From Klebsormidium nitens (Eukaryota; Plantae; Klebsormidiophyceae): DNA of 64,000 nucleotides. The number at the start of each line of letters is the position of its first letter. The first letter of the stretch is position 1. A program made the translations under genes and the position numbers. The notes beneath the pieces are model-generated. The model saw only the letters and a program-made list of their open reading frames with translations. It was not told where the DNA came from and ran no database searches. The DNA lies in NCBI GenBank assembly GCA_000708835.1, contig DF237105.1, positions 33,783 through 97,782 of the forward strand, written 5' to 3'. Below are positions 38,881-64,000 of this stretch, piece by piece.

Positions 38881-39399
38881 TATTGGCAGGAGTCCGCGGT
38901 AATCGACACCCCTCTGTTGCAAAACTTGTGCCTAGGGTTGATTTCAGCTTTTGCCTCCTGCGGCTTTAAAAAAATTCAAGGAGGGGGCTGATCTGCATGC
39001 ATGCGTTTGGAGTTTCAAATTAGACCCAAAGAAGGGAGCTTTTTGCTGGGGGACCAATTGAGAGGCCAGTGTTTCAGGGTCAAGGTCAGGGCTCTTTTGC
39101 AGCCCGCAGTGGAAGTTTCTTGCCGGGTGTGGACTTGGTGGGTCTTGTTTGCGAAAAACGCTGATTGCATGGCTGCAAGGCGTTGAAAACGTGTTGCGAG
39201 GCACTGACGCAACGTTCCATGCATTGACTTGGCAGACCATGATTTTGTTTGAGGCTTCGAGCGTGATTGACCAGCCCAAGGTCACCTGAAGAGAAGTCAA
39301 CCAAGCAAACGGCAGAGTGGCGGAGAGCGGCGACTCACCATACGCCAAGATGCAAGTGAGTGGGGGCTTTGGTTGCTACAACCAAGTCAGTCAGTAGGC

Positions 39400-42976: not shown

Positions 42977-45900
42977 AAATCATTTGTCCACTCGCCCTTT
43001 TTGCAGAAAGCTCTTGATTATCGGCGAAATCGAGAGCAATCCGGGATTTCCAGCGAGCGATGGGGACCGTTCTCCAGCATCAGGAGGGGACCCGCCAACG
43101 CCTGGTCTCGGCGTGGCCGGAGTGGTCGCTCAGCCGCCTCTTCACGATGTGAGCAAGCACCCCTCCGGGCCCAGTGTCCTTCAGCTTGATTGTTGTCGAT
43201 GGCTTGGGGCCAAGACAATCTGCACTGAATTGAAGGAGCGAGTGTTCATGAGAACCTGTGGTGCAGATTGACGGCACCCACTGGATATTTTCGATGAATC
43301 AGCCCCCAGACAATTTGCACTGGCTTGAAGAAGTGACTGGTTAGGACCCGGGGTGCACTTTGACGGCAGCAGTCGTGTAGTGATTCGGGATAAGGGCCTA
43401 GACAATCTGCACAAGCTTGAAGAAGTGACTGTATAGAACCCAAGGTGCCGATTGTCAGCCCCGAAGCTGGTCAGCTCGTGGGCCTGGATCACATCATCCC
43501 ACTTACGGGATAAGGGCTTGTGTATAGGTGTCCGCAGAGGCAGAACCGCCGAGAAGGAGGAGGAGACTCGTCAAGGTCTCTGAGCTTAGGAGCGAAGCCC
43601 CTGCAGGCCTTCGCACAAGCAGCGCGCCTGAACCCATTTTGGGCGCCCCAACTCAGTGAGCACCTATGCTGGGATCCATTCACGACATGCATTGTGCATG
43701 AAGTTGCCGCATCAATCTCTAGGAGCTTGAGATCGTCACAGTGGGACTCTTTAAGGGATCGATTGCACGTGCAAAGAGTCCTAAGTCTGTATGACGGACC
43801 CTCTAATTCTGCAGACTCTTTTCGCTGTTGCAGCGATGAAGCTGAGGCCAGACAGCAGGAGCTGCTGGGAAGGCAAAGCCCAGGACCCACAACGCCCGAC
43901 CAGGTAAGCCTATGGACCTCTTTTCCATAGAAGACCGGTTCTACTGCACTCTCTGCTAAGATCACTAGGCGTTCTGGTCTTCACTTGCATGGGTGTGCGC
44001 ACAAGACAGGCCCTGGCACGACCATGGAGGCTTCACGAGGGGCACACTTCTACCAGACTCCGAAGTCGGCCAGTTGAAGTGGGCTGCGAGCCTAGCCTAC
44101 CTCACACATGGCTCCTGAACGCCGCGGTTGCTGATGCTCGCTCAAAGCTCACCACTGAATATGCAATCTCTTGGCCTCTCAGGCGCGGGGCGAGGAGAGC
44201 GCGCAAGCAAGGACGCCGACCCCGGGAGACCTGCAGACTGGCCGGCCAGCGTCAAAGCAGCGGCGGTAAGCTCTCTGACTATTTTGGGCACTCGTTTCTG
44301 TCACAAAAAAAGGACTCTTGTGCTTTCAGGAGCCGTCGGTTGCGCTGGCTTTGGAAGTACGAGCGGCAAGGCCCCCTTGGGGAAGCGATCTGTCTCTCCC
44401 GGAACTACTCCTGAGCATAGGCCTGAGCATAGGGCTTTGTGAAGGTCTGGCTGATTTTTACTTTTCTGCGACCGCTCAGAGCTTCTAGAGACAAACATTT
44501 GGGCACCCTTCGCTTGCACGAAATCTCTAGAATTTTGACACTGATTTGGCTTGGGGTCAAAAGCGCCCCTAGCTGAAGGGGCTTGGTTGCAAACTTCGTG
44601 CTATGGCTTCTCAAAAGTCCGGCTGGTGTTCATTTTTGTGCGACCTCTTAGAGCTTTTAGAGACGACCATGTGGACAAACGTATCTTGAAATGTTGTACA
44701 GTTCTGATGTAGAAGCGGCCGCAGGATTTTTACCTTGGTCGCGGTGGTAAATACAGCCTCTAGCTGAAGAGGTCTGGTTGCGAACTCGCCCTTGGGCTTT
44801 GCGAAAACTTGTGTGGCTGGTCTTCGTTTTTGTGCAACCGCTTAATGATCTCGAAGGTGAACATAAGGCACTCTTTGCTTGCCCCCGCTGATATGCGCTT
44901 TCTTCTTGCGCATTTTCAGCAGAAAGGCAAGGGCGAACCCTGTCCCCATGGACGAGGCGGCTCGGGATGCCGGTCGAGCGGCTGTGGCAGCGCATCTCCA
45001 AGCTGTGGGGGCGTTGAGGCCCTCAAGAACACAGCGTGAGGGGCAAGCCGTTCATCAAACGGAGCTGGGTGATTTCGAAGGCCCGTCTTGTGCTTCCCCC
45101 CCGGTAAGTTGCCATGAAGAATACTCTCATCTGCAGCGGCCGGAGTAGACTTTTTTGTGTCCCCATTGATTGCTGCTATTGACGTTGCTTGATAAGCATG
45201 TGCGACTTTTGACTTCAACCTCAATGCTCCACCAGACCTTGGCTGCTTTTGGGGGCGCGGTTGGGTTGGTGTTGGGTAGACCTGCTTTGGGCACCTAGTT
45301 TCGGGGCCGTAGTCAAGCTGATTAGGGGGTGCAGGCAGGCTGTTTTGGGGGGCGCGGTTAGGTCGGTTTCAGGTCTGCTGCACATGGGCCTGGTTTTCGG
45401 GGCTGCCGCTCAAGTTGGTCTTGGGGACCACGTTGGTCAGGCTGGTTTTGTGCCACAATCAGGCTGGTTTCGGGTCTGCTCTGCCCTTGGTTTGGCTGGT
45501 TTCGGAGCTGGTTTTGGGGCAAACTGTTTTTGGGGGCGTGGTCAGGCTGCTTAGTTTTGCCGTGGTCAGGCTGGTTCCGCGTTTTGTTGGTTTGCTTGGG
45601 GCTGGTTTGGGCTTATTTGGGGCCGTACTCAAGCTGATTTGGAGATGCAGTTAGGCTTGTCTTTATGTTGGCAAGCAGCCCGGTGTAGTTAGAGCGCTTT
45701 CTTCTGAAGCTGAGTTCCAAGTGCTGTCAAACATGCGGCCTTGCTGGCAACAGGAGCGTTGTAGGGTTGCAAGCCTCATTGCTGCATGGCTTGCTTTTCT
45801 CTCAAACGTGTAAGTCAATCCTCTCTGATGATTGGCTTTCTTGGCGCAGGGGCTGGTGACTGACGCTCCCATCCAGAACGTTGGGTCCTTGGTCGACCGT

Positions 45901-48900
45901 CTGAAGGCCAAGCGGGATGCTGAAGAGGCGGCTGCGCGAGAGGAGCGGCTCAAACGCTATGGGCGTACGCGACCCCTCGGGGCTACACGTGGGATGGGAG
46001 ATGCCTCGGCCCACACCATGGACCAGGATCCGAGCCCCCCTTCCCCTCCACGCTCTTCCGTCCTCCGGTCCCAAAATGAAGTCCCCGGCCCGAGCGCAGC
46101 GCAGCCCCCCACAGCAGCCCCCTCTCTACAGGTTGTGGAAGACGAACGGGCTCTGCCGTCGCCGCTGGCCGACCAGCCCCCTGTAGTTGATTCGGGTTTG
46201 CCTCCCTCCCTGTCGCAACCCCATGATGACCCCCCCCTCCCCCGCNNNNNNNNNNNNNNNNNNNNATCGACATAGCCCCGCTCCCTGACGAAAACCCACG
46301 GCCCGAGGTCCCCGGTCAGCTCCCTTCAGTGAATCCTTCCCCTTCCCACGCCCACCAAGAGCAGGCGCATGCGCCCGACCCGCCAAATCAGCCCCCGCCA
46401 ATGGAGACAAGTCGGCCCACTGCAGCGGAGCCGTCCGCAGAGACGTCGTCTGCGCTTCCGCCCACCGAGCCGCTCACGCAGCTGCTTGGGGATCCCCCTC
46501 AGGCTGCGTCGGTCGAAGACAGCGGGCCCGGCTGGTTGCGAAAACTTGTGTTGGCGCTCCGGCAGCAGCGAGCAAAGGGCCATGCGATCGTCGTGGCTCA
46601 GGACGTAAACGGGGAAGGGGCAAAGCGCTGGGGCAGTTTCAAGGACGTCGCAGCCCTGGCGGCGTTTCGAAGGTCGCTTGGGGGACCGGCTCACCTGTAC
46701 GAAGTCATTCAGGACGACGCCTGCTGGCGCGTCTACTTTGACCTGGACTTCTCGGTCGCCACCAAGGATTCCAACGACTTTGAGCGGCGCCTGGCAGCAT
46801 TTCACTCCGTCCGAGACCGGTTCCTGACCTCGGTGCTCAATGTCCCCGAGAGTGCGCTCCGATATCAAGCGTGCGAGGCGCACGGGCCGGCGCGGCCCCC
46901 GAAGCAGGGCTTTAAGTTCAGCGTGCACGAGGTGCCGGAGGGGTTTCACCTGAGGGGATCGGACGCCAGGAGGGCGTTCGGGAAGGCCCTTGGGTCCTTC
47001 TTGGAGAATCCCCCAGACGATCTGAAAGCGAGTGTCGAGCTCATGCGGAAAGAGGGCGGGTCCGACTATCTGTGGGACGGATCAGTCTACGGGCGGCGCC
47101 GCTGCTTCCGGCTGCTAAGGTCGTCCAAGTTTGGGGATAATTTCCGTCCCCTCGTCCCATCGGAGGGCAGCTCCGAGGCGATCGTGGACCACCTGGTCTG
47201 CCTATACTCAGAAGCGGAAGTGGCTGGTTCCACCGAGGTCAGAGCCGCCCTCCTCGGGGAGTGGGCGATCGCGAGGCTCGCCCCCGCTGCCCGGCCCCGC
47301 GTGGGGTCCTTCCGACAGAGGGCGCTCACCCTCGAAGAGACGAGGACCTCACAGGGCCCCGGCGCCGAGGACCTTTCGGAGCAGGAGCGGGCCATTCTCC
47401 TCGCCCGCTACCAGGAGGACCACGCAGGGGCCGAAATTAGCCGGGTGGTCCAGGAGCGGCCGGGAGTCTTCTTCGTTCACTTCCAGGCGCCGGAGCCCAC
47501 GTGCTGCATTGCGGGAAGGCGCCACACATCACCAGGCAACCAGAATCCGTACCTCATCTACAAACGAGACGAGCCGCGCATCGCACGCTATCAGTGCTTT
47601 GCAAACAGCTGCAGGTGAGTTTTTGAAAGGTGAGCAGAGACTTAATGGCGCTTCGCAAATTCCGTCAATTTGCGCAACCGTTCTTCAGAGAATCGGACAT
47701 CAAGAAGGTGCAGATTGTCGAGCCTGGTGTCTGTACGGCAACCTGTCAGTTTCAAGTGCGATCGAGCTAACAAGATTGATCTGAGCGACCCTATCTGGGC
47801 TCAGGTTTTTTGGGGGCCAGTCTCAGGGCCGCGGTCAACTTGTTTGGTGTGCAGTAAAATTGACGGCCAGAAGTCAAGCTGCTTTAGAGCCTGATGTGGG
47901 TTTTGCCGTGGGTGTGTCAGGGGGCCTGCTTTTGGGCATTGTTTCAGGGGCAGCATATGGATCTGTCTTCAGGGCAGCTTTCATTGTTCGGTTGTGTTTT
48001 TTAGGATTGATCTGCTGCAGAGGTTAGGCCGGTTCAGGGGCTCCTGCGCTGGGGCCTACCTTGTGGGCCTCCTTTGGGTTTGGATCTGCCTTGCTCGAAA
48101 TCAGGCTGATTTCGTGTGGTTGAGTAGGGCTGGTCCGATGCTTGGTGCGAGCCTGATGTAGTCCTAGACTACTGTTACAGCGCCGGTTGACATGAGGCTT
48201 AGTCGAGGAGATTTCGGGGGCACATCAGGCCTTAACAGATTGAGCGGCCGGAAATTACTTCAGCGTGGGCCTCAAGGGGTGTTTAAGCTGAGCCTGAGTC
48301 TTCGAAGAAGATTCTACACGTTCTCAAGCCCATCTTACGCTTCCTTTTTGCAGGGGCGAGTGCCGGATGCTGCCCCTGGACATGCTCACCACCCTCGGCT
48401 GGACGGAAGACTACGAGGAGGACCTGGGGATGCGACCCTACCCCGTCTTTGAGATCGAGCACGTCCGCAAGCGGACAATGCTTATTTCCGCCAAGAAGGG
48501 GGTGGGGAAGTCAAAAGCGTTCATGGATTGGGAGGTGGCCATGGTCGGGAGGAACCCCGGGCCCTCTTTCCTCCTGATCGGAGCTAACATCTCGCTTTCT
48601 CAAAAGTATCACCAGGACTTAGTCGACGCGGGCGTGAGGGACGTCGTGCTCTACCAAGAGGCGCCTCCGGGGCCTATCAACAACCCCCGTGTCGTCTGCT
48701 GCATCAACTCTATCCATCGCGTGCAATTCAAGATGGACATCGTGGGGATGGACGAGATGGACATGGTGCTCACCAACCTCAACTCCGAGGTCATGTCCCA
48801 ACGGGGCAGGGTGCTGTCCTGCCTCGAGGCATTCGTCGCGGGCGCGAAGGTCGTCATCGGCATGGACGCCAACATCGACTGCGCGCGGGTCATGGAATAC

Positions 48901-51900
48901 CTCTTCATGGCGCGCCCGGATGCGGTCCTCCAGACCATCCGAAACAGAGGCTTGTATCCAGCGGCGAGGCGCGCGACCATCCGGGTCTTCTCGCAAGCGA
49001 GCGGTTCGCTCGAGTGCATCGGCACCGCCGTGCAGGATGTGTTGGACCGTGTCGCCCGAGGCACGAAAGTTGTTGTGAGTTGTCTTTAATGTCTTTGGTG
49101 ACTAATCAGCCGCTCTTGCTGTAAACAACGGAAACGAGCTGGTTTATGATCTCGAAAGGGTATTATCTTCGTGCTGCTCCCAAGTTTGTTGCATGGTTTT
49201 GAGTAGACTCTCTGTTGCGTTCAAGCTGCTTGGAGTGTGGTCACGCTGAATGAGTATTTGTGGGGCTGTGGTCAGACTGATCTGCGGCTGCAATCAGCTC
49301 TGATATTCAGGATTGTGAGGCTACAATTAGCTCTGATATTCAGGAATGTGGTGGGCATGAGTTTGGAGGCTTGGTTTCGAGCTGCAAATCAAGCTGTTTG
49401 GAAGTGTAAACGCAATCAATTGGGTCCACGGGCAAGTTTTACCAGGCTGTTGTTGACTGGTCGTGGGCTTAACTTCTGACTTGCTTCCACAGGCTATGGT
49501 CAGGCCGGGACCATCCTAATGTTCCGAACGGACTGTTGGGGTCCGCTTATTTGGGGCTTGGTTTCCGGAGAGTCTTTGTTAGACAAATGAACATCCGCTT
49601 TTCACTCGTAGGAAAAAGCTAACAACTTGCTCGGCCATTCTGATGCAGTGCCCTTCGACCTCCAAGCGCTTTGTGAAACACCTCGAACATCATTTCAACC
49701 GCGAGTACCCGCCCGCCAAGTCCCACAAGCGCGGCATCTTTCTTCACGCCGACAAGAGGTCGAAGGCCGATGAGGACTTCTTCCAGAAGGCAATGGCCGA
49801 GCCCGACACCTTCTTGGAGGCGGACTGTGTGGCCTTCTCCCCAAAACTCGGCCCCGGCGTTTCAAAAGAGAAGCCGTACGCCGAGGAGACGGTCGCTTTC
49901 GCTCTTAACAGCCTCAATGGGTCTGACGTTGAGACGCTCCTCCAGCAGCACGCTCGCTTCCGGACGGTCACGAATTCCACCATCTACTACAAACAGGTGG
50001 TCTCGTCAGCAGTGGATCTGCCGCGCTCTACCGAGGCGGTCTTCCAGGCCATCGAGCGGGACGACAGGCAGATTGTCAGGATGCTCGGTGACGCCTCAGG
50101 CTTCCACTTCCTGAGGGGTTCGCGTGGCATCTGTGACCGATCCTCAGCGAGCTGCGTCTTATACGCAAACAACATCCTCGCAAAGGTGGAAAGCTATCTA
50201 GAGTTCGTGCCGAAGCTGAAGGCCGACCTAGAGAAGCAGGGCTACGAGGTGACGGTTGAGCACATCGAACCAAGGGTGGGATTGCCGAGCGCTCAGAGCT
50301 AGCATCAGATTTCTTGAGTTGCAAGCTCATCCGGTTCTGAAGGAGGGCGTTTCAGACATGTGGGTATGTGATCTGCTGTCATGTGAGATCTCATGCGGAC
50401 CTGGACTCTGACTTCGACCTGAAGTTCTACCAGACGTAGGCTGTTTTGGGGGGCGCGGTTAGGTTCGTTCCGCGTCTGCTCTAGGCACCAGGTTTCGGGC
50501 CGTGGTCAAGCTGACCTAAGGTCGCAGGCGGCTGTTTTGGGGGTGCGCTTAGGTCGATTTCGGGTCTGCTGTGGGCCTGGTTTTCGGGGCTGTTTTGGGG
50601 ACCGCGGTCAAGTATGTCTTGGGGAGCGTGGTTAGGCTGGTTTTGTGCCGCCATTGGGCTGGTTCCGGGTCTGCTCTGGCCTTGGTTTGGGGTTGGTTTC
50701 GGGGCTGGTTTGGGGCCGCAGTCAAGTTGGTCTTGGGGACGTGGTCATGCTAACCAATGTTGTGCTGTGGTCAACCTGGTTCCGGGTTTGCTCTGGGCCT
50801 GCTTGGGCCCTCGTTTGGGGGCCGTGCTCAAGCTGATTTGGAAGCAGAATCAGGCTTGTCTTGTGCCGTGGTTAGGCTTTGCAATCAGTCCGGTGTAGCT
50901 GGTGCGCTGTCTTTCAAAGTTGAGTTTCTTGAAGGTGCCGTCAGACATGCGGCTGACAACAGAGGCGTCGAAGTTGTGGCTCGGTTTGAGAGTCCGGCGA
51001 CTTGCAAACAATTTCTTTGAGGCTATACCACGTTTGCTTTCGCAGGAGAATCAAACTCTCACCCTTTTACTTTTGAATCTCCAGGGCAACCTCGAGCGTC
51101 CGCCTCCAGAGGTACCTCTCGGCTTCGACCCAGACCCGGAGCTTCTGGATGACGAAGACTGGCGAGCCAGGTACATCATCAACTCGGACCTGTACGGGCG
51201 TTTGTGCGAGAGGCCGGAGGAGCTGAGTCCGAGGGAGCAGCTCCAAGAGTACCTGTTCGAGATGGTGACGAGTGAGTACAAGGTCGACCCTAGGCGGGTT
51301 GACCACAGCTTCTACCGTCGCTTCTGCGCCCGACACGGACGATGCGAAAGAGACGAAAGAGGCTCACGCAAACTACCTCAGGTGAATTCTGCGACCCCGC
51401 GTTGCGGCTCGAGCAGAAGTTGGAGCTCTTATGCACCCTTCGCTGAGCTCTTTCTGCTGAATGTGAATGTTTGAGTTTGAAGAGTGTAGCACATATCCCA
51501 AGCCAACCAAGTCAGGTTCATCTCTGGTGCACTTCTAATGCTGTTTTTTGATGCACAACCAGGATTGTTCAAGGGGCTAGTCTCAGGGCTGCGATCCATC
51601 CGTTTGGTGTGCAATCAGTTTGACTACAGCCGGAAGTCAAGGTGCTTTGGAGCCTGATGCGGGTTTCGTTGTGGGTGTGTCGGAGGGCCTGCTTTTGCGT
51701 TGTTTCAGGGGCATACACGAAGTCTTTCTGTGCCCTCACTGCAATGAATGAACCCTTCCATTTGCTGCCTTCTGACGATGGTTGTGCTATACAGATTTCG
51801 TGAGCACCGCTTCGCCACCCTCGCCGGCGATCTGGACAGAGCGCTGGGCCAAGTCAATGAGTCGGGCGTGGTCCAGGAGTACGTCAAGGTCGTCCGCGAC

Positions 51901-52335
51901 CCCCTCAACCGCGTGCCGTTTGCGGTCCGCATCCTTGCCTTCCTAGTCGGCTGCGAAGAGGAGCAGCTGGACCATGGAGCGGAGCTGTGGGAGGTCTCGG
52001 AGGAGCGCGTGCAGGCCGCCTATGCGAGGTTCATCGGATTCAGCAAAGAGCAGCTGCAGACCATCTTCAACCTGTACGGCTTTGTGCAGCAGATCTCCAG
52101 GCGCTCGAAAACGGCCGAAACAGGGAAGAATGAGAGAAAGGCTCAGAAGCGCAATGCAGTGGGGAAAGTTCTCAGAGCGGGCCTCGGAGTTGAGCTCCAG
52201 CTGGCAAAAAAGAGCAACAACAAATTCATCTCTCCCCACCTCTTGACGCCTGCAATCTATAGGGGCTTGCATGAGCGATACGGTTCATACGATCCGGGAG
52301 TAGGGGCTGCAGAGGAGTGCATAATTAGGTTGTAA
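42966..52335 (+). CDS. Multi-exon ORF2: Pro/Ser-rich region, AEP (PrimPol/NCLDV-herpes type) primase, Zn finger, UL9-like SF2 origin-binding helicase
   Basis: Exons 42966-43148, 43528-43655, 43834-43903, 44183-44265, 44920-45103, 45850-47614, 48354-49074, 49649-50275, 51085-51381, 51795-52335, all phase-compatible. AEP motifs YEVI..VYFDLD, KFSVH, WDGSVY..FRL..SSK; Zn C..GRRH..CFANSC; helicase AKKGVGKS, CINSIHR, MDEMD, GMDA, FSPKLGPGVS. One frameshift near 51330 and an N gap. The first four exons are less certain than the last six. Confidence 0.8.
43210..43460 (+). repeat. Array A3: 3 diverged units gacaatctgcac-N(32-35)-gtgc..attg in intron 43149-43527
   Basis: Same inverted-arm architecture, and ttgaag..tgtatag spacer words as in A1, A2 and B. 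Confidence 0.65.
45245..45770 (+). repeat. G/T-rich intronic repeat, colinear with 50440-50990
   Basis: ggctgttttggggg..gcg.ttaggtcg.tttc.ggtctgctg at 45338 and 50530; ctcaagctgatttgga at 45628 and 50827. Confidence 0.8.
46246..46265. other. Assembly gap (20 N)
   Basis: N run inside the Pro-rich part of exon 45850-47614. Confidence 1.
47819..47950 (+). repeat. Intronic repeat homologous to 51578-51712
   Basis: agtctcagggc..gtttggtgtgca..gaagtcaag.tgcttt.gagcctgatg.gggttt..gggtgtgtc..gggcctgctttt shared. Confidence 0.8.
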
Positions 52336-52516
52336 AGGTGGTGATTTATTGAAGAGAAGCTGCATAGATCTAGAGAATTTCATTATGTATTGTAGGAGTG
52401 TACATATAACTCATTGTCAGTCTTTTTTCATCCAACCGCGTCGCTTGCCGCGTCCGCAAATGGTTTTGCCTCTTTAAAGCACGCCCTCTTTGTGGCTTGT
52501 TGTAGTCGCTTGCACG

Positions 52517-53492
52517 AGTCAAAATGCACGGGCTTTCAAGCTTTAATGTATAGTCAATGGGTGCAAATTGACTGCCGACCATGCCCCGAGTCGTTCAGGC
52601 ATGTTGTAGTGGATAGCTCACGTGAGTCAATATGCACGCTTTTGGAGGTTTGGTGTATAGTCGATTGGTGCAAATTGACTGCCGACCATGCCCGGGATCT
52701 TTTCTGGCACGTTGTAGTTAACAGCAGAAACGAGTAAAAATGCATGGGCTTTGAAGCTCTGATGTATAGTCAATGGGTGCAAATTGACTACCGACCATGC
52801 CCGGGACCTTTCTGGGCACGTTGTAGTTAACAGCAGAAACGAGTAAAAATGCATGGGCTTTGAAGCTCTGATGTATAGTCAATTGGTGCAAATAGACTGC
52901 CGACCATGCCCGGGATTTTTGACGCGTTGTACTTGATAGCACGCGAGACGAGCTAAAATGCACGTGCTTTGAAGCTCTAATGTATAGTCTATTGGTGCAA
53001 ATTGACTGCCGACCATGCCCGAGATTTTCTGGCACGTTGTAGATAATAGCAAAGACGAGTAAACGTGCATGGGCTTTGAAGCTTTAATGTATAGTCAATG
53101 GGTGCAAATTGACTGTCAACCATGCCCGAGACTTTCTGGCATGTTCAATGTAGTGGATAGCTCACGCGAGTCAAAATGCACGCTTTTGGAGGTCTGATGT
53201 ATAGCCGATTGGTGCAAATTGACTGCCGACCATGCCCGAGACTTGTTGGCACGTTGGTGTTGATAGCAGAGACAAGTCAAAATGCACGGGCTTCGAAGCT
53301 TAAATGTATTGTCAATGGATGCAAATTGACTGCTGCTAGTGACCATGCCAGAGACTTTCCGACTGGGCACGTTGTGATTGATAGCAGTGATGAGTCAAAA
53401 TGCACGGGCTTTGAAACTTTGATGTATAGTCAATGGGTGCAGATTGACTGCCGACCATGCCCATGCCCGAGACTTTCTGGCACGTTGTGATT
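52517..53492 (+). repeat. Array B: 9 tandem units (about 108-118 bp) agtcaaaatgcac-N30/31-gtgcaaattgact
   Basis: Units near 52517, 52625, 52732, 52842, 52952, 53057, 53170, 53275, 53393; linker gccgaccatgcccgagac..ggcacgttgt..gatagca. Confidence 0.95.
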
Positions 53493-53570
53493 GATAGCAA
53501 AAAATTTGGCATTTCGTCTGAGCAATCAGCAAATTTTTGCTCGTGCATAATAAGTTGGTTGTGTTTGCGA

Positions 53571-54086
53571 ATGGACTCGATCATCCGTTATCCACCGAAG
53601 GATCAAGCTGCCATCACAGACATGGACGAACGGGTCTATAAGTCAGTGAGGTCTGCCATCACGCGTTGCTATCTTGAGTTTGGTCGTATGCACACTTACC
53701 TTGATATTGGCTCTTTGGCCGGCTTGCGAGCCTTGACTCACCCCTATAACCTCTCCCACATCACCCGGAAAGTGGTGAGATCCTTGATTGCAGAAGGATT
53801 CCATTGCTTTTGGGACAAGTCTTGCGTACACAGCAGCTCAATGTACACAATCTACGTTGATTGGAGACGTGCATTGAAGTACGCCCAGAATGAGGAAAAA
53901 GAGGCCGGCCACCGGCCTCGAAACGTACGCGTAGATAACTCCGAGCGGAGAGGAGCCTTTCAAGCCTTCTTGAGAACGTGGCGGCAGGAGGAAGCACTGA
54001 TGACTGGGAGACAGAGAATGTCGAAGTGCCTTTCTTGGAAATGCTCGCGAATCCATCGAAGCGGCCGTCTTCACCGGAATAACTAG
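53571..54086 (+). CDS. Intronless virus-like hypothetical protein
   Basis: ATG at 53571; SLIAEGFHCF..YTIYVDW recalls small NCLDV hypotheticals (weak). Confidence 0.5.
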   Translation: MDSIIRYPPKDQAAITDMDERVYKSVRSAITRCYLEFGRMHTYLDIGSLAGLRALTHPYNLSHITRKVVRSLIAEGFHCFWDKSCVHSSSMYTIYVDWRRALKYAQNEEKEAGHRPRNVRVDNSERRGAFQAFLRTWRQEEALMTGRQRMSKCLSWKCSRIHRSGRLHRNN

Positions 54087-54375
54087 AGAATGTGCACTTT
54101 CTAGAAAAATGCATGGCCGTGATAGGCTTGATTTAAAAAAGATGTACAGCCATATTCACGTTTTCTGAGTGGGTCACATTTGCTAGCAAATATGAGGTTC
54201 GATAACTTTTCGAACACGGCTGCTACAACCTTTTTTCGACTGGAAAACATGCAAAAGCATTCAGGCAACTCAGAAAGTACAGAAAATCCCGAACAGCCAT
54301 ATTCACTTATCTGGAGGCCTGACCTCGTTTGTCGGTCCAGGTTTTTTTTCCAAGATTATGTGAGATAAACAGGCC

Positions 54376-55245
54376 ATGGATCCAAAAGGTGACGAACGCT
54401 CAGTAACCGTTCCAAGGACGCTCGAGCAGGCCACGGGCCTGACCCCGCTTCTCATCGACGCCAAAAAGGAATTTCCAAAAGACATTGAGCTATACCAAGC
54501 ACTCCACAAAAGGTACCAAGAAGTCCGGACGTTAATGGATAAGGCACGTCCGCCACCGCAGGTGATGACCGAATCCGAGTTCCGAAACTGGACGACACTC
54601 TCGCAGATCAATGAGCGTCGCGTGGAGCTCCAGAGGAAGGTGAACCGCAACATTTTAACCAAACCATCCGGACAGTTAACAACCGGAGACAAAGTGATCC
54701 TAATCCGCTATTTGGTGCTATGTTTATACAGTCAGAGCGCCACTCTCCGGAATGATTACTCCAACCTGCCAATCATACGTTTTGAGGAAATGCACGCGCC
54801 TTCGGCAAAAGCCCTGATGAGTGGGGGCGGCAACTATCTTCAGGAGTACTCGAAGGGCCAATACAGAGTCGTTTTGAAAGAATACAAGACTTCAAAAGCC
54901 TATGGAGAGCAAAAGATCGACCTTCCACAGCGCACATGCAATGTCATTGCGGAGAGCCTATAGATCTTTCCCAGAAAGTACCTCCTGAGCCGGATGCGCA
55001 CACCGGATGAACCAATGAGCCGCAATTACCTCACCAAATTTTGCGCAAGCATCTTTGACGATGCTAGAGTGGGCACATGTCTGCTTCGGAAGATCTGCGT
55101 CTCAAATGCAATGAAGGATGCACCGAGCATTGCCGACCGGGAGGAGCTCGCTAAGAAAATGCTCCACTCGAGCACCATCCAGACGCGCGTTTACGAATTA
55201 AAGTACAACCCGGATGGATCGCGGATTAATTTTGATGATGCTTAA
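54376..55245 (+). pseudogene. Tyrosine recombinase (PLV/virophage-type integrase) with one in-frame TAG
   Basis: LRNDY (R), YKTSKAYG (K), LLRKI (R), MLHS (H), RVYEL (Y). ORFs 54376..54963 and 54994..55245 share a frame across TAG 54961-54963. Confidence 0.85.
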
Positions 55246-55321
55246 GCGTCAACGTACTTTTTGCAAGTTGAGGTTTGAGCAAAGTTGCGTGCACGACATG
55301 ATCTTGGACCATCTCGTTCAT

Positions 55322-55672
55322 CTATGACACTTCGATGCCTGTGAATGCATCCATTAAAATGGTGGGTGCTTCGGACTCACTCTCTGCGTCCGAAGGGCTT
55401 ATGATGTGAGGTATATTGAAGTCGGCGTCAATCAAACGTTGAGCTGTGGTCTTGTGAAGCCTTTTTGTTCGTCCACTCACGTATCGTTGATACGCCTTCC
55501 GCAATAAGATTGCATCCTGATGTCTGTAGTAATATGCTTTCATATTTGCATTGTGTTTTTCCGGATGGATCTTTGCATATTCCCGGTGCTTTTGACAAGC
55601 TTGGCATGGGCATGGAACAACCCGAAGTATGTTAGAGACGTTTGCAATGCGCTCATTCATGGGATGGACCAT
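55322..55672 (-). CDS. Small basic virus-like protein (CPCQAC..K.YYYRH..L.RKAYQRY)
   Basis: 116-aa intronless ORF between the integrase and the primase. Confidence 0.5.
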   Translation of the reverse strand: MVHPMNERIANVSNILRVVPCPCQACQKHREYAKIHPEKHNANMKAYYYRHQDAILLRKAYQRYVSGRTKRLHKTTAQRLIDADFNIPHIISPSDAESESEAPTILMDAFTGIEVS

Positions 55673-55789
55673 GCTGGACTCAGTCCTACACTGTACATAA
55701 GATTATTTTTTTACTCTGACCGCGGCTCGGCCCGAAAGTTGTGTGCGTTCATTTGACGAGGATTTTTTTCTTTGCGTTGAACAAGGACA

Positions 55790-58489
55790 TTGGGCATGGA
55801 ACAACCCAGCGTCCAGGACACTCAAGCAACTAGAAAAATCGAGGTCCTAGGGCCTAGCAGGATTGGGGAAGAGATGCAACGGCTCTGTAACAATGGTCTG
55901 TACGCTCTGCCCGTGTGTGTCTCATGGGACTCTGTTAGGGGTTCCAAACGGGCTGATTTCCCCCACAAATATGATCACATCAAGGATTTTGAGGCATGGG
56001 AGCGGTCCATCAATTCTGCATTGAAGGAGAAAAGATACGCAAACGGTCTCGCAATAGTCGCCTCAGTCAGTCAAGTATATGTCATCGACATCGATGTGGC
56101 TGCAAAGGGAGAAAAACGACCAGGATTTGAGCTATGGCAACAGCTTGTTGAGCTCCATGGGGAGCCGGATACACTAACAGCAAAAACTGGCTCTGGTGGT
56201 TTGCACCTTTACTTCAAGCTTGATTCTCCTGGTCTCAAGTGGAAGCGGAACTTCTCAGGGGTGAACGTCGACAACAAAACTTTTGCTATTGACGGCAGGG
56301 GGATCGGGGGTGTGGTTTTTGCTCATCCAACAAGCTATGTGAACGGCCGCGAGGAGCTTGCGACATACAAGTGGCTTAATGGGCCTCCCACTTATGAGGC
56401 GTGCAAAGAGATGCCACTATGGGTCACGAAGATGGTCAACAATCATGCCGGTCTGCGTGTTACCATAAGCAAAGGTGGAAAAGAGGAATCTCCAATGGAG
56501 CTTAGGGGCGTCGAACGTCCACCGATTGCAACCCAACCAGTCGGTGATCATCAGATGTCAAACGCAGTTCGTGAGGTACAAAAAATGCTCCAAACGAGAA
56601 CAAAAGAAGACGGGAATGCGCGTTTTGGAGGCACAACGGTGCTTCCCTGAGAGGGCAACCGCGCATTTCAATTCCGCGTGAACGGTCCACGGACTTGCTA
56701 CCTTGGAAAGAGTCACAATGGATTGAACAACTTCACAGTCATCCAAGGCTGTGCTGGAGACTTCCGCAGTGTATATTACAATTGTTTTGGCACTGCCTGT
56801 CAGCACAACAACATCAAAGTTCTGGGCCAGTTGAGCATCTCGGCCGCTCTTGAGCAAGCGTCGGTGGACGAGTTCGGGATTCGAGACCAAAGGGTTACCC
56901 ATGAAAGCAATCTTGAAGCGCGGTTGCCCACGACATTCATGAGGAGCATGGTGTGTCGGAGCGACTACGGAGCCGCTTCAATGTTCACCAGGTTGTTCCT
57001 GCACGACAGGCGAATTGTGTACGATGCGGGAAACTTCTGGTTTTGGGACGGAAGAACATGAATTGCATGCGACGTGGAAGCGTCATTGATCAAGACCGCG
57101 TTCATGCACCATATGGGGGATGTAAAAGCTTTTTGGTTGAAGCGGAACGCGGACGAGAGCCGTGAAAAGATCCTCGATGGAAAACGTGCACGGGACGCTA
57201 GCTTGGTGGAACTCCGCAACGCCAAAAAAGACAGTCACTCGAATAGGACAGCCGAGGCAGCAATCATGAGGACCTTCAGAGCATTTGAGAAGGACGCCAA
57301 TGATCTTGCTAAATGGCCAGGACCCGACGTTGAATCCGTTCCAATCGCCACCCGCTGTTTGACACCGTTAAAGGCAATGTTGAAGCTTGATGGCTTTGCC
57401 AAGGAGCTTAATGCAAATCGAGACTACTTAAACACGAGCTCAGGCGCAATCCATTTGCCAACGGGCAAACTCATACCACATCACCCAAGCAATATGCTCT
57501 CGAGAGAAACCGACACCGATTATGTCGAACCTCATTATCCGTCACCGTTGATTGATGACTTCATGCTACAGATCCAAACACCGGACATCATTGAGGTCTT
57601 GCAAATGACTCTAGGCTACGGCATCACTGGACATTCAAGAGAGCAGCAGTTCGTCATTTTCTACGGACCTTCAAATTCAGGGAAGACCAAGCTTCTCGCT
57701 CTCGTAAAGGCGGCAATCCGGCTGTATTTCTGCACGATGGACCGCGATTGCGTCATCGGGGTTGGCGCAAGGTCAGAAGGCGCCGCTACTCCACATCTCG
57801 TGAAGCTCGAGGGGGCGCACATTGCAGGTCTGGAAGAGACGAAAGCAGAGGACATCTACAACGTTGCGAATGTCAAATCCATTGCATCAGGTGACGGGGG
57901 AATGAGTGTACGGGGGTTGTGCAAGGATCCCGTCGACATCACATACCGCTGTCTGCCAATCATCTGCACAAATTCCCTACCAAAGTTTGACGTTAAGGAC
58001 AGTGGTACGCTGAAGAAGCTTCGTGTGTTTCCCTTTGAACGGGAATTTGTTGAAGAACCCACGCCCGATTCCAACGAACGCTTGATTGATTATCAGCTCA
58101 ACGAAAAGATCGAAAGTCCGGAGTGGAGGAAACAAATGCTTGCTTGGCTTGTGCGAGGAAGCATTGCGTGGTATGCTAGAGGCAGTCTGCCGCAAGTTGG
58201 AGAACTACCACGCAAAATGCAAGAAGCCCTCAAAGGCTATGTAGAAGCAAATGATCATCTCGAGAATTTCATTGCCGATCATTGTGTGAAAGGAGAGAAG
58301 TGGGCAACGCATGTGGACGTGCTGAAGCAAGCATTCGAGAATTATGTTGGAAGGCGAGACCGGCCTATGACGGTAACCGAATTCAAAGGAATGATGCAAG
58401 GTGTGAAAGGTGTCACATATGCAAAGCAAGTCAAGATACTTGGGCGCAATACGACGGGGTACAAAGGGATCAGCTTACGCCGGCAATGA
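55790..58489 (+). pseudogene. Bifunctional Prim-Pol primase + Zn module + D5-like SF3 helicase with two in-frame TGA
   Basis: VIDIDV..TAKTGSGGLHLYFK; RTCYLGKSH..YYNCFGTAC; FWFWDG; GPSNSGKT (Walker A), IAGLEET (Walker B), IICTN. Three ORFs in one frame with stops at 56648 and 57059. Confidence 0.92.
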
Positions 58490-58521: not shown

Positions 58522-58625
58522 GGGTAGGCGAGGTAGGTCAAAGGTAGGTCAAAGGTAGGTGTTCAAAATAACCCATTTTAGGGTTGTATCATGGTTACTA
58601 ATAAACTTATGGTAGGTAGGTAGGT
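58522..58625 (+). repeat. GGTAGGT-rich tract including a tandem aggtaggtcaa repeat
   Basis: ggtaggcgaggtaggtcaaaggtaggtcaaaggtaggtg..ggtaggtaggtaggtg. Confidence 0.8.
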
Positions 58626-58707: not shown

Positions 58708-59854
58708 CTACCTACCCGGGTGGAGAGGTTGGAGCCAAGCCCCCAGCAATGGAAGGGGATGAGCGCTCATGAGCGCTCGCTTTTGAGAGAGAGGTTGGGG
58801 CGAGATGAGAACGGAGAAGAGCTGCACCCATTGCCAACGGGCCATGCCTTTCGGGCCGAGCAGGACGTGCTGGCGTGCTACCCGTTTCCCGGCTGGGAGC
58901 AGAAACGAGGGTTGCCCTGGTATAGCAGCTTCGAGCATCCGGACGGCCGCAGTAAGAGCTCCGAAGAGAACAAGTGCGCAACGGGGAAGTCGATGACGGA
59001 GTGGGATGCCGAGCACGTTCCCGGATTGGTGAAGGGGGCCGGAAAGCTCTCGGGGAAGAAGGGAAGCGCAAGTAAGCGGCCAAAGAGGAGCAGGGGGGGC
59101 TTTGTGTTTGCGTGCCCCCACAGGTGCATTTATGGGTTCCACGTGATGCTGCGCGGAGAGAGCCCAAGGGACGCGTTTGCCGTGCTCTACACTCGGCTGA
59201 GGCGCGAAGATCTGCCAGATGTTTTGATCCACGACAACAGCTGCGCCTTGCGTAACTACTGCTTGAGTCCGCAGAGAACCGGCGCATTTTGCCAATGTTC
59301 GCTTCGTCGTCGACAGGTGCATGCTTTCACATATTCGCATGGGTGGACAATATGTGTTAAGACTTGCTTGTAGTGGTTTTTGTTGCAGAGCATTGAGTTG
59401 AGATTGTGGTGTACATACGTCATTTGCCGTTGCGTGTACATTGGGATTCATTCCGCAATTGAACAGAGGCTCCCAAAGCTGTGATTGTTGATTTGAAACG
59501 TGTACATTAATTCTTTTTCCAGGAATGAGAACTGATGTACATCTTCTTGTTCACAGGTTTCACTTCTCAAAGGCCGGCCAGGAGGTCCACAAGTGCGGTC
59601 CCTCAAACTGCCCGGACACCTATCCTTCGCTTCACTGGGTAAACACTAGTGCGGTGGAGTCGGTGAACTCCTTCTTGAAGGGGTTTCGAAGCCTGGGGTG
59701 GTATTCGGGGCTTGAGAGCTTCATGGTGATCCTGCCTTTGCTCCTCGGCGACTACAACCAGACGCTCAAGAGGGTCGACGATTTCAAGCTTGCGATTGCA
59801 ATAGCAGCAGCCGTGTGGACGGTTGGAGTGCGCACTCGACTGTTGCGAGGATAG
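58708..59854 (+). pseudogene. KDZ transposase C-terminal half (inverted relative to the rest of the gene)
   Basis: GGFVFACPHRCIYGFHVMLRGESPRDAF, IHDNSCAL; frameshift near 59268 to REPAHFANVRFVVDR; intron 59317-59556; FHF..HKC..NTSAVESVNS. Confidence 0.85.
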
Positions 59855-60001
59855 GGTAGGTGGCTTGCAAGTGTCCAACACAAACGCGGCACAATCATCT
59901 TTGGCCTTCTTTTGAAGCAACACGTAGGTAGGTGGGGTAGAAGTGTGGTAGACAATCAGCAATGGGGAGGAGAGGAGTGTTCATCGTCAAAAACGTTGCT
60001 G

Positions 60002-62394
60002 AGGTAGGTAAGTAGGGCCTGGGAGCAATTTGTTTGCCAGCCCGCACGCCTCGTCCAACTGCCGTCGCTCCTCGATGCTAAAGGGCCGTGCTCGAGCCTC
60101 CCTAAAGAGATTGACGGCTCGATCGAACGGGTCGAGCGCCTCGTGCACCCAGCCGCGCCGCCCATCGGCCTCGAATCCCGTTGCCCCCCTTGAAAAGACG
60201 GTGATGAGGTAGAGATGGTAGAGGGTGCGCGTGAAGAAGGCCGGAAACGCGAGCCCCTCGTACGCGTCCAGGATGCGCCGCAAGATGGGCGCGTCCCTTG
60301 CCAAGTCTCGCCGGTCCTCAAGAGTTGCCTCGCCCCCAAGCAAAAGCCGCCGGATCACGTGCAACGCGCCAACCCCAATTAGATCCTCGTCTGAGTCGTG
60401 CGCGCCCAAGCAGTAGAGGAGCTCCGTCCACTCCCCCACCCAGTGCAGCCACAGGTCTGGACTCAACCCTCGCCTCTCGAAGTCGGCCTGGATCCCCGTC
60501 AGCAACTCGAGGACGGCCAGATTCCGGTCTCGCACCATCGTGCGCTGGTCGGCAAGCATGCGCCGTCTGCCGTCCTCTGGAAGCGACCCCTCCGCCTCAT
60601 CCGGCCCAAAACGCTTCACGGTCTGGGGGTTCTCGTGGGCCAGCCCGTTCAAGAGCGCTCCAAACTCCGTCTTCGACAACCTCTCCCCGAGCTTCCCGTC
60701 CTGAGGCCTGTGCTGAGAGAGGCGTGCATGCGCTTCTCGCAACTCGGGTAGCAGCAAGAGCTTGCGCTTCAAGCCGCCACCCACAAGACTTGCCCCGCAG
60801 TAGTCGCGACCGGAGATGGGCCGCTTCTCGAGGAGCTCCCCCGTGGAGGTTTGGCTGGGATGGCAGAACGTGCGCCGCGCGTCGAGCGAAGAGCTCCCAA
60901 GACCCCCCGGCTTTTGTCCGCCGTCCGCGCTGGCCAACCCCACAATCCCGTCGCAAATGAGCACCTGAAGAAGAGTCCAATTTTGCGACGGTAGATCAAC
61001 GAGTGTGTCGAGCTCAGGATTGGATTAAAGTGCATGGCTCAGGATCGACCACCCAATCAACGGATTGAAATTTCATTGAATGTCCATTGAATATCGTCGA
61101 ATGTACACGGAATGTCACTGGATGTACACTCAACATCAGCAAATGTACACTGATTGTGGAAGAATGTACACTGATCATCGTCAGGTACCGACATTGCCAG
61201 GCATGTGTCGAAAGATCATGGAACGGACAAACAGCAAAGACACGATAGACAGAAGAATCCTGCGACCGCAAGCCACGTGGCTCACCTGTGGATGCGGCCC
61301 GCACAACGAGCAGCAATCCCGAAGCCCCAGCCCCACCAGCTTGAAGAAGTCGAGGCTTGCCCGACGCCACGTCTCTTCGCTCAGAACCGCCGCGGTTGGG
61401 GTGTACTCGAACGCGGTCTGATCACGCGCGAGCACGGCCCTGAAAGATTGGCCGCTTTGCATGCCCCGCAGAAGGAGCTGGAGGCTTTGTTGGTGAAACA
61501 GCGTACGTTTGGACCAGACGTAGAGCCCCAGATGCTCCCCGTCAAAGTGGACGGCATGGGCCCGGTCCAGGCACGAACAGTGGTACAGCCGCACTCGCAC
61601 CTTCTTGCTCCACGTTGACGCCTCGACGGTAGCCTCTACCCAGGCTTCCATCCATTGAGTTCCGCAAGGAGGGGCTTCAAGGGGGCAAGGGGCGCTCAGG
61701 AGGCCGCGTCGGGAGAGCTCGGCATAGTGGCAGTCTCTGAGCTCGCTAAGGGGCACCGGGAATTGGAGGCATGTGACTAGAGGGTCGTGCACAGTTGAGG
61801 CGTCGCTGGGCCTTGCCAGCTTTGGTTTAGAAACCTGAACGGCTTCCGTAGTCAGCAGCATCATATGACATTGGGCCCGCTCGTGAAGCGCGTGCGCGCA
61901 GGCGCCCTCGATCTTCAGCGAGCTCAGTGTGCAGCTCGAGCAGGCCGCAACCCAGCCGTGGATGGCCTCCTTTCCGCAAGCGTCTAACGGCGGCACCGCC
62001 CCCTCGGGCTCCGCCGGTCGGCCCCGTCCCAGGATGGGCGCACGTGCTTGCGTCTCCCAAAAACTCTTCCCCCTTCTCCTCCGCTTGCCTGCAGGCGGCT
62101 CATGTGCGCCCCCTCCTTCCTCCTGCCCCATGACTTGGGTTTTGCGGCCCTCAGGCTCCGTCTCCGTGGGGCGTGCCTCGCCGAACAGAGCCGCGTGCCT
62201 TTTGCAAAAGCACTCCTCTCCGGCACACGCTCCCCCCTCGTGTGGCCGCCTCTGAAGCAGCCCCAACAAGTACTGCTGTTCATCCGTGAGCTCCCCTCCT
62301 TCTCGAGGCACGAGGCTTCCCTGCGAGGCAACCCCTGTCGGCACCGCCCTTTCGTCCCCGATTTGCGGCAACTCCTCTTCGGACCATTGCTCTA
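60002..62394 (-). pseudogene. KDZ transposase central part (CxC domain + first catalytic Asp)
   Basis: PCPLEAPPCG..HCSC..FDGEHLGL..WRRASLDFF..CSLCGPHPQ, intron 61285-60965 (phase 0), then VLICDGIVG. Confidence 0.85.
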
Positions 62395-63355
62395 GGGCGT
62401 TCGCAGGATCCGGTAGGGCCAATTTCGGCACTTTTAAAAACAAATGATAATAAATACCAAAAAAATGAATCCTCGGTCGAATGTCGTTGGAATCGATCCT
62501 TGGTACACTCCAGTGACTTGGTACCGGTCGGTGGTGCCAAAAAGTACGGCCGTCCGCGCTGAAAAGTACACGTGTACACACGCCGTTGGAGATGTTACCA
62601 TTGTGTGACCACTTGTCAGATTCGGTCATTTATGAACCTGCGCCACGTTTCACTCTCCCATTTGATGCATACTTGGCCGAATCGTGCTCGATTTCGTGCT
62701 ACCGGTAGATAAAACGACCAGTAATCAGTGTACCGGTTTGAATTCTGAAAATTTGGTCGGGAACCGGTAGATTTTATCGGTGCCCGGTTGATGACCGAAA
62801 TTGGATACGGTGCAAAGGGCAACCCACAGAAGTCGGACCAAACGAGCAATTCCCGAGGTCGAACTTGGTCACCGGGCACTACTAGCCGAACTCTAGTTCC
62901 TGGCGTTGTCCGTTAAAATTTTGGGACCCTGACCCGGTTGATAGCGGGTCGACAAAGTTGATTCAATATAAATTTGAATAAATCCTAAAAATAAAATTAC
63001 AGCACAGAGCCCGGGTTTGGCAAGATTTGTGGAAACTTAAGAGATGGGACTCTCGGGTTACCTGAGACGATACTTGTGACCAAGTTTCAGAGGAAAAAAG
63101 TTGCTCCGGGTACAACTTCCAAAGGTTGCCCTTTTCAAAACTGCCGTCTATCGGGCACGTTTTGCATCTACCGGGCAGTTGTCAAAATTTTCGGAACTTT
63201 TTGCGGACTATTTAGAGTTCCCTTTAGGGAACCCAATGCCGAAATCGAAACTTAATTTGACCAAGTTATGTCAAAATGGCGGCCATATAAGTGCCGAGTC
63301 ATTTATTTGGATACTGGTGACAGCCTTTTGGCCCGACCTGATCGTGCGAACGCCC
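62395..63355. mobile_element. 961-bp non-autonomous TIR element (MITE-like) inserted in the KDZ exon
   Basis: Ends gggcgttcgcaggatccggtagggccaa and ttggcccgacctgatcgtgcgaacgccc (3 mismatches in 28 bp); flanks ttgctcta / gccctcta (imperfect 8-bp TSD). Confidence 0.8.
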
Positions 63356-63960: not shown

Positions 63961-64000
63961 AGGCGTTCGCAGGATCAGGTAGGGCTAAAAGGCTGTCAGC
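63961..64000 (+). mobile_element. Left TIR of a second element of the same family, running off the window
   Basis: aggcgttcgcaggatcaggtagggctaaaaggctgtca matches the reverse complement of 63318-63354 at 34 of 37 positions. Confidence 0.75.

Follow-up and report, generated by a model that had tools for sequence, protein, structure and literature searches.

A decayed recombinase and primase-helicase cassette in Klebsormidium nitens, a likely remnant of a polinton-like virus

A 64,000-nucleotide stretch of the genome of the streptophyte alga Klebsormidium nitens (contig DF237105.1, hereafter the window) carries a tyrosine recombinase (YR) beside a Prim-Pol/D5 primase-helicase, which raises the question of what kind of element such a pair once belonged to. 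The sequence-only reading had left two answers, a polinton-like virus (PLV) whose structural module was displaced by a KDZ transposon insertion, or a minimal satellite that integrates and replicates.

A genuine but dead cassette

The locus had been described as four tightly packed, intronless genes. The frames, their order and their spacing stand (Table 1; gaps of 289, 76 and 123 bp, no introns in any of the four), but the recombinase and primase-helicase frames are both broken, which had been missed, and ORF1 and ORF3 are unproven as genes, since ORF1 has no homolog and ORF3 has weak matches only. None of the 19 near-length candidates (94-300 aa) found for ORF1 in 5.8 billion proteins was homologous (best atlas score 0.79), and it is therefore not a conserved cassette gene there, whilst the ORF3 atlas score of 0.89 is a lead only (best E-value 0.022 among 2515 locus ORFs).

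Table 1. Features of the cassette and its flanks, in window coordinates
Feature	Position	Strand	Basis and remarks
Apparently spliced gene, PRIMPOL-type AEP and UL9-like SF2 helicase	45851..52335	+	PF02399, 2.7e-14; 5l2x, E 8.7e-5
Tandem array, ~9 units of 109 bp	52514..53500	+	12-bp inverted arms and 30-31 bp spacer in each unit; left flank, putative member of the element
ORF1	53571..54086	+	171 aa; without family or homolog; perhaps not a gene
Tyrosine recombinase (Yrec) pseudogene, virophage/PLV type	54376..55245	+	Catalytic residues, motifs, homologs
ORF3	55322..55672	-	116 aa; convergent to recombinase; weakly like small unnamed viral proteins
Prim-Pol, D5_N and SF3 helicase pseudogene	55796..58489	+	897 codons; domain matches
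Seven GGTAGG repeats, predicted origin (iterons)	58523..58625	+	4 + 3 around an AT-rich spacer
KDZ-like transposase pieces	58710..60009	+ (pieces)	Right flank; bounded by TACCTACC / GGTAGGTA

The motifs that had been named for the recombinase are all present, as RNDY, YKTSK.YG, LLRK and MLHS...Y, and the window copy retains the complete catalytic set (R125, K171, R238, H264 and Y273), five residues that are invariant or near-invariant across 114 homologs. The frame is interrupted by a TAG at 54961-54963, and, compared with homologs, its helical domain at the N-terminus lacks ~64 residues after residue 17. PF00589 is matched by 23 of the 114 family members (best 5.9e-8), whilst the copy in the window matches no Pfam family; the family profile matches the PDB integrase 3nkh (9.7e-6), and the predicted structure of an intact homolog (P0004, pLDDT 95) resembles XerA, Cre and lambda Int (one built earlier on 16 sequences, with a poor pLDDT of 58, was set aside). 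By its R-K-R-H-Y set and the integrase fold of the intact homolog, the gene is a tyrosine recombinase.

The Prim-Pol/D5 assignment was borne out by matches to Prim-Pol (PF09250, 5.5e-15), D5_N (1.1e-9) and PHROG primase 1156 (1.2e-63). Two internal TGA codons interrupt this frame (56648-56650 and 57059-57061), and the breaks shown across the cassette are three nonsense codons and one N-terminal deletion. That the stops are read through in a recoded gene set, or that the pair is a contaminating bacterial prophage satellite, is hardly credible: the PHROG primase matches and the alignment of one TGA with a Trp column of homologs would suit such an origin, but the helicase frame encodes 14 Trp with TGG and itself terminates on TGA, and the deletion is inexplicable by recoding, which was rejected. 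Bacterial contamination, a danger that the sequence-only reading had itself named for the recombinase, is unsupported, as scans of GTDB confirmed 0/5 recombinase and 0/42 primase-helicase candidates, the flanks of the cassette show apparent spliceosomal introns, and the named homologs of both genes are algal. Decay may have been driven by methylation, as only the Arg changes seen in the homologs suggest; CpG observed/expected is 0.95 in the cassette against 0.83 across the window, i.e. there is no CpG depletion. The cassette is genuine but dead, and the window copy is incapable of integration, replication and packaging.

Relatives of the two genes

Close relatives are multi-copy, with 55-76% identity for the recombinase, and those with names belong to Klebsormidium nitens; 38 recombinase proteins are Klebsormidium-like, 12 of which are at least 340 aa long with all five catalytic residues. 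P0004, P0012 and P0015 are examples of intact recombinases. A tree of 147 sequences (~255-430 aa, with profile hits outside this length range left out and no bacterial outgroup) contains a Klebsormidium-like clade (14/14, support 1.0), the nearest neighbours of which are unnamed proteins without context. In IMG/VR, 0 of 75 recombinase candidates were confirmed as a related locus and 0 of 40 for the primase-helicase; tblastn against a phage collection gave no match. With P0052 and P0054, the closest recombinases from outside, 0/5 and 0/3 candidates proved to be related loci, and P0050 led to two distant virophage-like loci.

In total, 98 loci of distant relatives were retrieved (24-40% identity to the queries, 96/98 from IMG/VR), 59 with a major capsid protein (MCP) or MCP-like gene and 82 with an MCP, minor capsid protein or ATPase, a tally that is biased because IMG/VR selects viral contigs. 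Twenty-six loci combine the recombinase with a D5/SF3 gene: 17 have an MCP (8 of virophage type, 9 PLV-like), 24 have some morphogenesis gene, and the remaining two look like giant-virus contigs. The 'PLV MCP' labels are our assumption, being given to clusters named from their motifs, of which one only has Pfam support, and that weak (Capsid_N, 0.0013), whilst hhalign to an NCLDV capsid failed. One metagenome locus holds the recombinase together with two neighbours, an ATPase and an MCP of Sputnik type (1.9e-35). No recombinase of the Klebsormidium type was observed next to a capsid. Against BFVD, the viral structures ranking highest for the P0004 model were eukaryotic giant viruses and one virophage, with named phage integrases from rank 18. 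Locus context and viral structure matches support the PLV/virophage affiliation that had been proposed for both genes.

The structure ranking would also suit a piece of an inserted giant virus (Nucleocytoviricota) that carried the recombinase and an extra primase-helicase. The recombinase family is also present in giant-virus contigs (GVMAG names), the closest non-Klebsormidium primase-helicase cluster contains an Asterochloris protein, and the available text of PMC5294986 describes phycodnavirus-like inserts in Klebsormidium. We nevertheless consider a giant-virus origin improbable: no NCLDV core gene was recognised among the window frames scanned, nor any further NCLDV gene near the cassette, the low-GC3 block spans only ~6 kb, and the primase is a Prim-Pol (PF09250), whereas among the locus D5 genes the only one with its domains complete has AEP_C962R/PriCT_2.

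The replicase is chimeric, its primase half matching P0040/41/42 at 73-75% and its helicase parts P0033 at 73-82%. Elements that share a host and exchange domains could give such a mosaic, and replicase mosaicism is described for PLVs. A second helicase remnant, without a recombinase, lies at 21.4 kb in the window. Among the JGI relatives, the size of a recombinase contig equals that of one of 12 primase-helicase contigs in 1 of 23 cases, an indirect comparison that is blind to uncalled or short genes; a 77,129-bp sister contig is apparently common to recombinase P0021 and primase-helicase P0040. Such rare pairing would suit a patchwork in which the remnant of a recombinase gene and an AEP-SF3 gene with a mobility of its own came to lie side by side and never formed one unit, as would the chimerism, the lone remnant at 21.4 kb and a region that is repeat-rich and crowded with mobile debris. 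A patchwork is nonetheless very unlikely: the two genes lie 550 bp apart on the same strand, GC is uniform across the cassette (0.50), GC3 is 0.60 in the recombinase and 0.54 in the primase-helicase (0.47-0.60 in the cassette) against 0.74-0.84 in the gene upstream, and the pairing of these two genes is common in PLVs and virophages.

A candidate origin, the flanks and the presumed capsid arm

The GGTAGG cluster begins 33 bp past the helicase stop, with all seven repeats in one orientation around a 48-bp spacer of 73% AT. GGTAGGT occurs six times where 0.14 are expected, a count reached by 0/2000 shuffles. Judged by its sequence, the cluster looks like a replication origin; a rival reading takes it for subterminal repeats of the neighbouring transposon, and three further GGTAGGT lie in the right flank (59855-60009). 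At least three copies of a GC-containing 7-mer are found within 220 bp downstream of 6/19 locus primase-helicases, against 27/711 other genes (Fisher p 1e-4), and such repeats are absent at the other 13/19. The cassette offers a concrete candidate origin behind its helicase gene, in a layout enriched at distant virophage/PLV primase-helicases.

If the cluster is an origin, the published end-module layout would have the element terminate towards the KDZ-like DNA and its lost arm lie upstream. That a KDZ insertion displaced the structural module is therefore doubtful, since the origin-like repeats lie between the helicase and the KDZ-like DNA. What we take to be KDZ is so labelled from its motifs plus one CxC4 match below cut-off (E 3.4e-4); the remaining KDZ-like frames (59987-64000) are on the minus strand, an apparent inversion against the plus-strand pieces. 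On the left, units related to the 109-bp array recur at 39.4-40.9, 41.55-42.0 and, weakly, 43.2-43.5 kb (13 matches against 0 in 100 shuffles). They were not accepted as att sites or terminal inverted repeats (TIRs), as they fold no better than shuffles (z -1.8 to +0.8) and have no match in IMG/VR. The AEP/UL9-like gene further upstream has virus-like content, apparent introns and a host-like GC3, in contrast to the cassette, and is probably a separate, older element.

In agreement with the sequence-only reading, profiles from the retrieved loci (16 home-made ones, plus A9) detected neither a capsid nor a packaging ATPase when run against all six frames of the window, a search in which the Yrec profile, as positive control, matched at 2.4e-34. 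Virophage, PLV-like and NCLDV major capsid profiles gave no match in the window (Klebsormidium PC_0089 was not among them, and a decayed copy could escape), and minor capsid profiles and two ATPase profiles gave nothing significant there, the best ATPase score (E 0.68) falling inside the helicase frame. Within the window no TIR or inverted pair brackets the cassette, no att site was seen and no PLV unit of 15-30 kb is delimited. The replicase and integrase expected of a PLV are there, as a Prim-Pol-D5-SF3 gene adjoining a YR, both broken; because a double jelly-roll capsid was not found, we class the cassette as a likely remnant and not as a PLV genome. The lack of a capsid in one degraded copy is a poor guide to the family.

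Lack of a capsid and ATPase within 64 kb is also what would be seen in a capsid-less, SaPI-like satellite family of a streptophyte alga, in which a virophage-type recombinase, a Prim-Pol/SF3 protein and a GGTAGG iteron origin would let the element integrate, excise and replicate itself, borrowing PLV or giant-virus capsids, with a dead copy here. The compact set of integrase, primase-helicase and post-helicase repeats is arranged as in SaPIs (as far as PMC9371898 is available), the recombinase has expanded, with 12 of the 38 Klebsormidium-like proteins at least 340 aa long and bearing the catalytic set, one contig apparently holds both P0021 and P0040, and autonomous AEP-SF3 modules are proposed in the available part of a 2026 preprint. 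Such a satellite is unlikely, though the strongest of the alternatives: the 1/23 contig pairing (by size) argues against a fixed four-gene satellite, 5.8 billion proteins contain no near-length homolog of ORF1, the window shows neither ends nor att sites, and morphogenesis genes occur in 24/26 distant two-gene loci, the other two resembling giant-virus contigs. The two branches of the sequence-only reading part here, the PLV fragment being the more likely and the satellite the weaker, because this copy is broken, ends and att sites were looked for without success, and relatives of the two genes seldom sit on contigs of equal length. Should intact capsid-less copies with shared ends exist, phage satellites would have a clear counterpart among eukaryotes.

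A probable PLV end module and its published counterparts

We conclude that the cassette probably derives from an endogenous PLV that has lost its capsid arm, and represents the decayed end module that served integration and replication. The published systems are compared here as the available parts of their sources describe them. The order recombinase, primase-helicase, short-repeat cluster is that of the PLV 'end module' (PMC11296320), a YR accompanies AEP replicases (10.64898/2026.10.13.758929), and K. nitens has at least seven PgVV-group PLV MCP loci, on contigs BANV01000556, 572, 1558, 1713, 2520, 2626 and 2767 (PMC10120064). In the intact ancestor, the recombinase would have integrated and excised the genome at sites near its end, and the primase-helicase would have loaded on the GGTAGG cluster behind its own gene, melted the AT-rich spacer and primed DNA synthesis, whilst a capsid/ATPase arm, probably upstream, would have packaged the genome, possibly with a giant-virus helper; that arm may later have been lost by deletion or rearrangement.

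The end modules of AHEV_PLV2, CBEV_PLV1 and Gezel-14T (PMC11296320) share with the cassette a primase-SF3 gene between the recombinase and a repeat-bearing non-coding end, and primase and helicase domains swapped between elements. Unlike them, the cassette has broken genes, neither a capsid arm nor paired inverted terminal repeats were found for it, and its primase is a Prim-Pol (PF09250) where theirs is a D5-like AEP. In SaPI/PICI elements (pri-rep-ori; PMC9371898), too, an integrase accompanies a primase-helicase fusion, and short repeats flank an AT-rich core immediately behind the helicase gene, but the cassette is eukaryotic-hosted, its recombinase is of the virophage/PLV family, its repeats are unidirectional, unlike SaPI origins, and no regulatory or helper-interference genes were recognised in it. 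Transpovirons and mobile AEP-SF3 genes are capsid-less replication modules akin to PLV replicases, described as pPolB with DDE, or as AEP-SF3 alone, in contrast to the YR with Prim-Pol-SF3 seen here, and the available text does not demonstrate a self-standing YR and Prim-Pol-SF3 family (10.64898/2026.10.13.758929). In the open literature (subscription journals and bioRxiv supplements lying outside), we found no description of the Klebsormidium recombinase family or of a capsid-less YR and primase-helicase family.

As a PLV remnant the cassette is ordinary. It adds a replication module, YR and Prim-Pol-SF3, to what is published on PLV-type elements in a streptophyte alga, in the literature found capsid loci only (PMC10120064, available part). 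The PgVV (Gezel)-group PLVs of K. nitens (MCP cluster PC_0089) match the host group of the named homologs and are likened to the cassette by host only (PMC10120064); among PgVV-like PLVs, no information-processing gene is described as more widespread than YR (10.1101/2022.07.28.501842). In the green-algal PLVs Tsv-S2a and Tsv-S2b of Tetraselmis, a D5 helicase-primase adjoins the YR, as in the cassette, whilst the capsid genes lie across from it, separate from the clustered replication genes; these are complete, TIR-bounded elements that form virions with a giant-virus helper, and the resemblance drawn here is one of layout (10.1101/2025.10.09.676808).

A broken recombinase and primase-helicase cassette

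The cassette forms a block of 49% GC, with a GC3 of 0.47-0.60 against 0.74-0.84 in the gene upstream. It had been described from sequence as four intronless genes; four intronless frames are present, but both large ones are broken, ORF1 had neither family nor homolog in the family and homolog searches, and ORF3 gave weak leads only, to small viral proteins. The recombinase carries a premature TAG at 54961-63 and, compared with its homologs, is without ~64 residues after residue 17, which appear as N-terminal helices in the predicted model of an intact homolog; the primase-helicase is interrupted by TGA at 56648-50 and 57059-61.

Features of the cassette and its flanks
Feature	Position	Strand	Remarks
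ORF1	53571-54086	+	intronless
Recombinase frame	54376-55245	+	intronless, broken
ORF3	55322-55672	-	intronless
Prim-Pol/D5_N/SF3 frame	55796-58489	+	intronless, broken
AEP + UL9-like gene	45851-52335	+	apparently spliced, host-like GC3
~109-bp repeat	39386-40928, 41549-42007, 43213-43479, 52514-53500		12-bp inverted arms
37-bp inverted repeat	63318-63354 / 63962-63998		92%, inside KDZ-like region
Related third copy	62395-62422
Second D5/SF3 helicase C-terminal remnant with two short frames	21355-21792 / 22540-23266	- / +
Coding repeats	8356-9274		108 bp and 126 bp

The primase-helicase matched Prim-Pol (PF09250, 5.5e-15) and D5_N (1.1e-9), followed by an SF3 region with matches to DUF5906 (0.0012) and PHROG 1156 (1.2e-63). 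Because the window recombinase alone had no match in Pfam, PHROG or PDB, it was tested through its family, whose profile recruited 2318 proteins (E<=1e-3) and matched the PDB integrase 3nkh. In an alignment of 114 members, R189 and K235 never vary and R302, H328 and Y337 hardly do; 23 of the 114 matched Phage_integrase. The predicted structure of the intact homolog P0004 (pLDDT 95) resembles XerA, Cre and lambda Int, and giant-virus and virophage proteins rank first when this model is searched against BFVD. The family also occurs in giant-virus contigs (loci L005-L014 from IMG/VR, several of them GVMAG), four times near an NCLDV major capsid gene.

Relatives, capsid genes and descent

We found 30 relatives of the recombinase (55-76% identity) and 12 of the primase-helicase (33-76%), and those bearing an organism name are all Klebsormidium nitens, which points to a Klebsormidium-like alga as host. 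The family is algal and multi-copy. No relative of either was confirmed in GTDB; contamination or recoding as the source of the cassette is exceedingly improbable. All five catalytic residues are kept in 22 of 38 close recombinases (12 of the 22 are at least 340 aa), and 8 of 9 changes in the two catalytic Arg columns lead to Q, C, H or W, the outcome expected of CpG deamination; CpG depletion was not found in the cassette itself.

The window replicase is a mosaic: the primase half is 73-75% identical to the homologs P0040/41/42, whose helicase side mostly shares 23-27%, whilst the D5_N/SF3 part is 73-82% identical to another, P0033. Linkage of YR with AEP replicases and helicase-domain shuffling are reported, and replication modules are proposed to move alone, in 10.64898/2026.10.13.758929. 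Only 1 of 23 JGI recombinase contigs pairs with 1 of 12 primase-helicase contigs (equal length, 77,129 bp; genes that are short or were not called escape this count), and among named K. nitens proteins the single recombinase scaffold tag is unlike all seven primase-helicase tags. The 77,129-bp match shows that the pair is able to recur, and its rarity speaks for PLV modules that are loosely coupled, or for a patchwork, more than for a satellite with a fixed set of four genes. The cassette would work like a phage-satellite replicon, but a capsid-less satellite-like family is an unlikely source; a patchwork of separately arrived genes, which the rare pairing favours, is decidedly improbable.

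Among 98 distant recombinase-family loci, 59 carried an MCP or MCP-like gene (28 of virophage type, 27 that we take to be PLV-like from motifs and one weak Capsid_N match, and 4 of NCLDV type), and 82 carried an MCP, mCP or ATPase. In each of four groups (virophage MCP, minor capsid, NCLDV MCP and one ATPase cluster) Pfam confirmed a single member. Recombinase and D5/SF3 occurred together in 26 loci, with an MCP in 17 and some morphogenesis gene in 24. As the collection is virus-selected (96 of 98 loci are from IMG/VR), the tally shows which genes commonly accompany the family but not whether any of them must. In the window, the sequence-only reading had recognised neither capsid gene nor packaging ATPase, and this was borne out: capsid and ATPase profiles from the distant loci, among which the Klebsormidium capsid type is not represented, had no match in the 64 kb, and the Yrec profile, run as control, did match. 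PMC10120064 reports at least 7 K. nitens MCP loci of cluster PC_0089 and places Streptophyta among holders of PgVV-group MCPs, and PMC5294986 reports phycodnavirus-like genes in Klebsormidium; a giant-virus fragment is a rather improbable reading of the cassette.

With moderate confidence we regard the cassette as a decayed PLV remnant. Repeats, primase-helicase and tyrosine recombinase are described as a PLV end module (PMC11296320), and in green-algal PLVs D5 adjoins YR, the capsid genes lying on the opposite side (10.1101/2025.10.09.676808). Searches of the window for the capsid, ATPase and TIR of a whole PLV were negative, and no att pair was found there. In the ancestral PLV the recombinase would have integrated the genome and the primase-helicase would have begun replication at GGTAGG repeats; the capsid arm would later have been stripped, its loss upstream being more probable than loss through the KDZ-like insertion, as first proposed, and the remaining module would then have decayed.

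Repeats behind the helicase gene and the right flank

Seven GGTAGG copies lie directly 3' of the helicase stop, four and three flanking a 73% AT spacer (GGTAGGT: 6 observed vs 0.14 expected, 0/2000 shuffles). In SaPI origins, 6-12 short iterons flank an AT-rich core right behind rep (PMC9371898), and the window repeats likewise follow the helicase gene around an AT-rich spacer, by which analogy we infer a putative origin. In the fetched loci a downstream repeat cluster follows 6 of 19 primase-helicases vs 27 of 711 other genes (p 1e-4; related loci are not independent), and such repeats may be a general origin signature behind virophage/PLV primase-helicase genes. Short GC-containing direct repeats stand right behind these genes in L093, L097, L028, L051, L075 and L094, in some cases followed by an inverted copy.

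A rival reading assigns the repeats to the KDZ-like neighbour: 59855-60009 holds three further GGTAGGT copies, and 62630-63300 shows a mild enrichment of GGTAG (4 vs 0.8), although GGTAGG is absent from the latter interval. The KDZ-like transposase seems split by an inversion of 58710-60009 with TACCTACC / GGTAGGTA at its borders, a motif shared with the putative iterons. A recombinase may have made the inversion, or it may be an artefact of assembly; before it, the three copies would have opposed the seven head to head. The 37-bp inverted repeat and its related third copy suggest further rearrangement of the KDZ-like region.

The left flank and other observations

The left-flank gene combines a PRIMPOL-type AEP (PDB 5l2x, E 8.7e-5) with a UL9-like origin-binding helicase (PF02399, 2.7e-14) and, from a motif, what is probably a Zn finger; it may extend upstream beyond 45851 and could be a viral replicase that has gained introns, or else a replicative transposon. 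Its presumed introns resemble one another (45210-45739 vs 50409-50953, 73% over 571 bp; 47813-47952 vs 51573-51713, 81% over 143 bp) and had no match outside 44.4-52.4 kb, a similarity that suggests spread by duplication or by an intron-generating repeat. The ~109-bp arrays are limited to positions bracketing this gene, the last lying left of the cassette; they may hold origin-binding sites or may simply be a minisatellite within introns, and array and gene together look like an element other than the cassette.

The second helicase remnant (33-34% to homologs, best E 4.5e-15) lies beside two short frames, without Pfam match, that look like viral accessory genes, and together (21355-21792 and 22540-23266) these are probably another virus-like remnant. 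The coding repeats resemble Sel1-like and TPR repeats.
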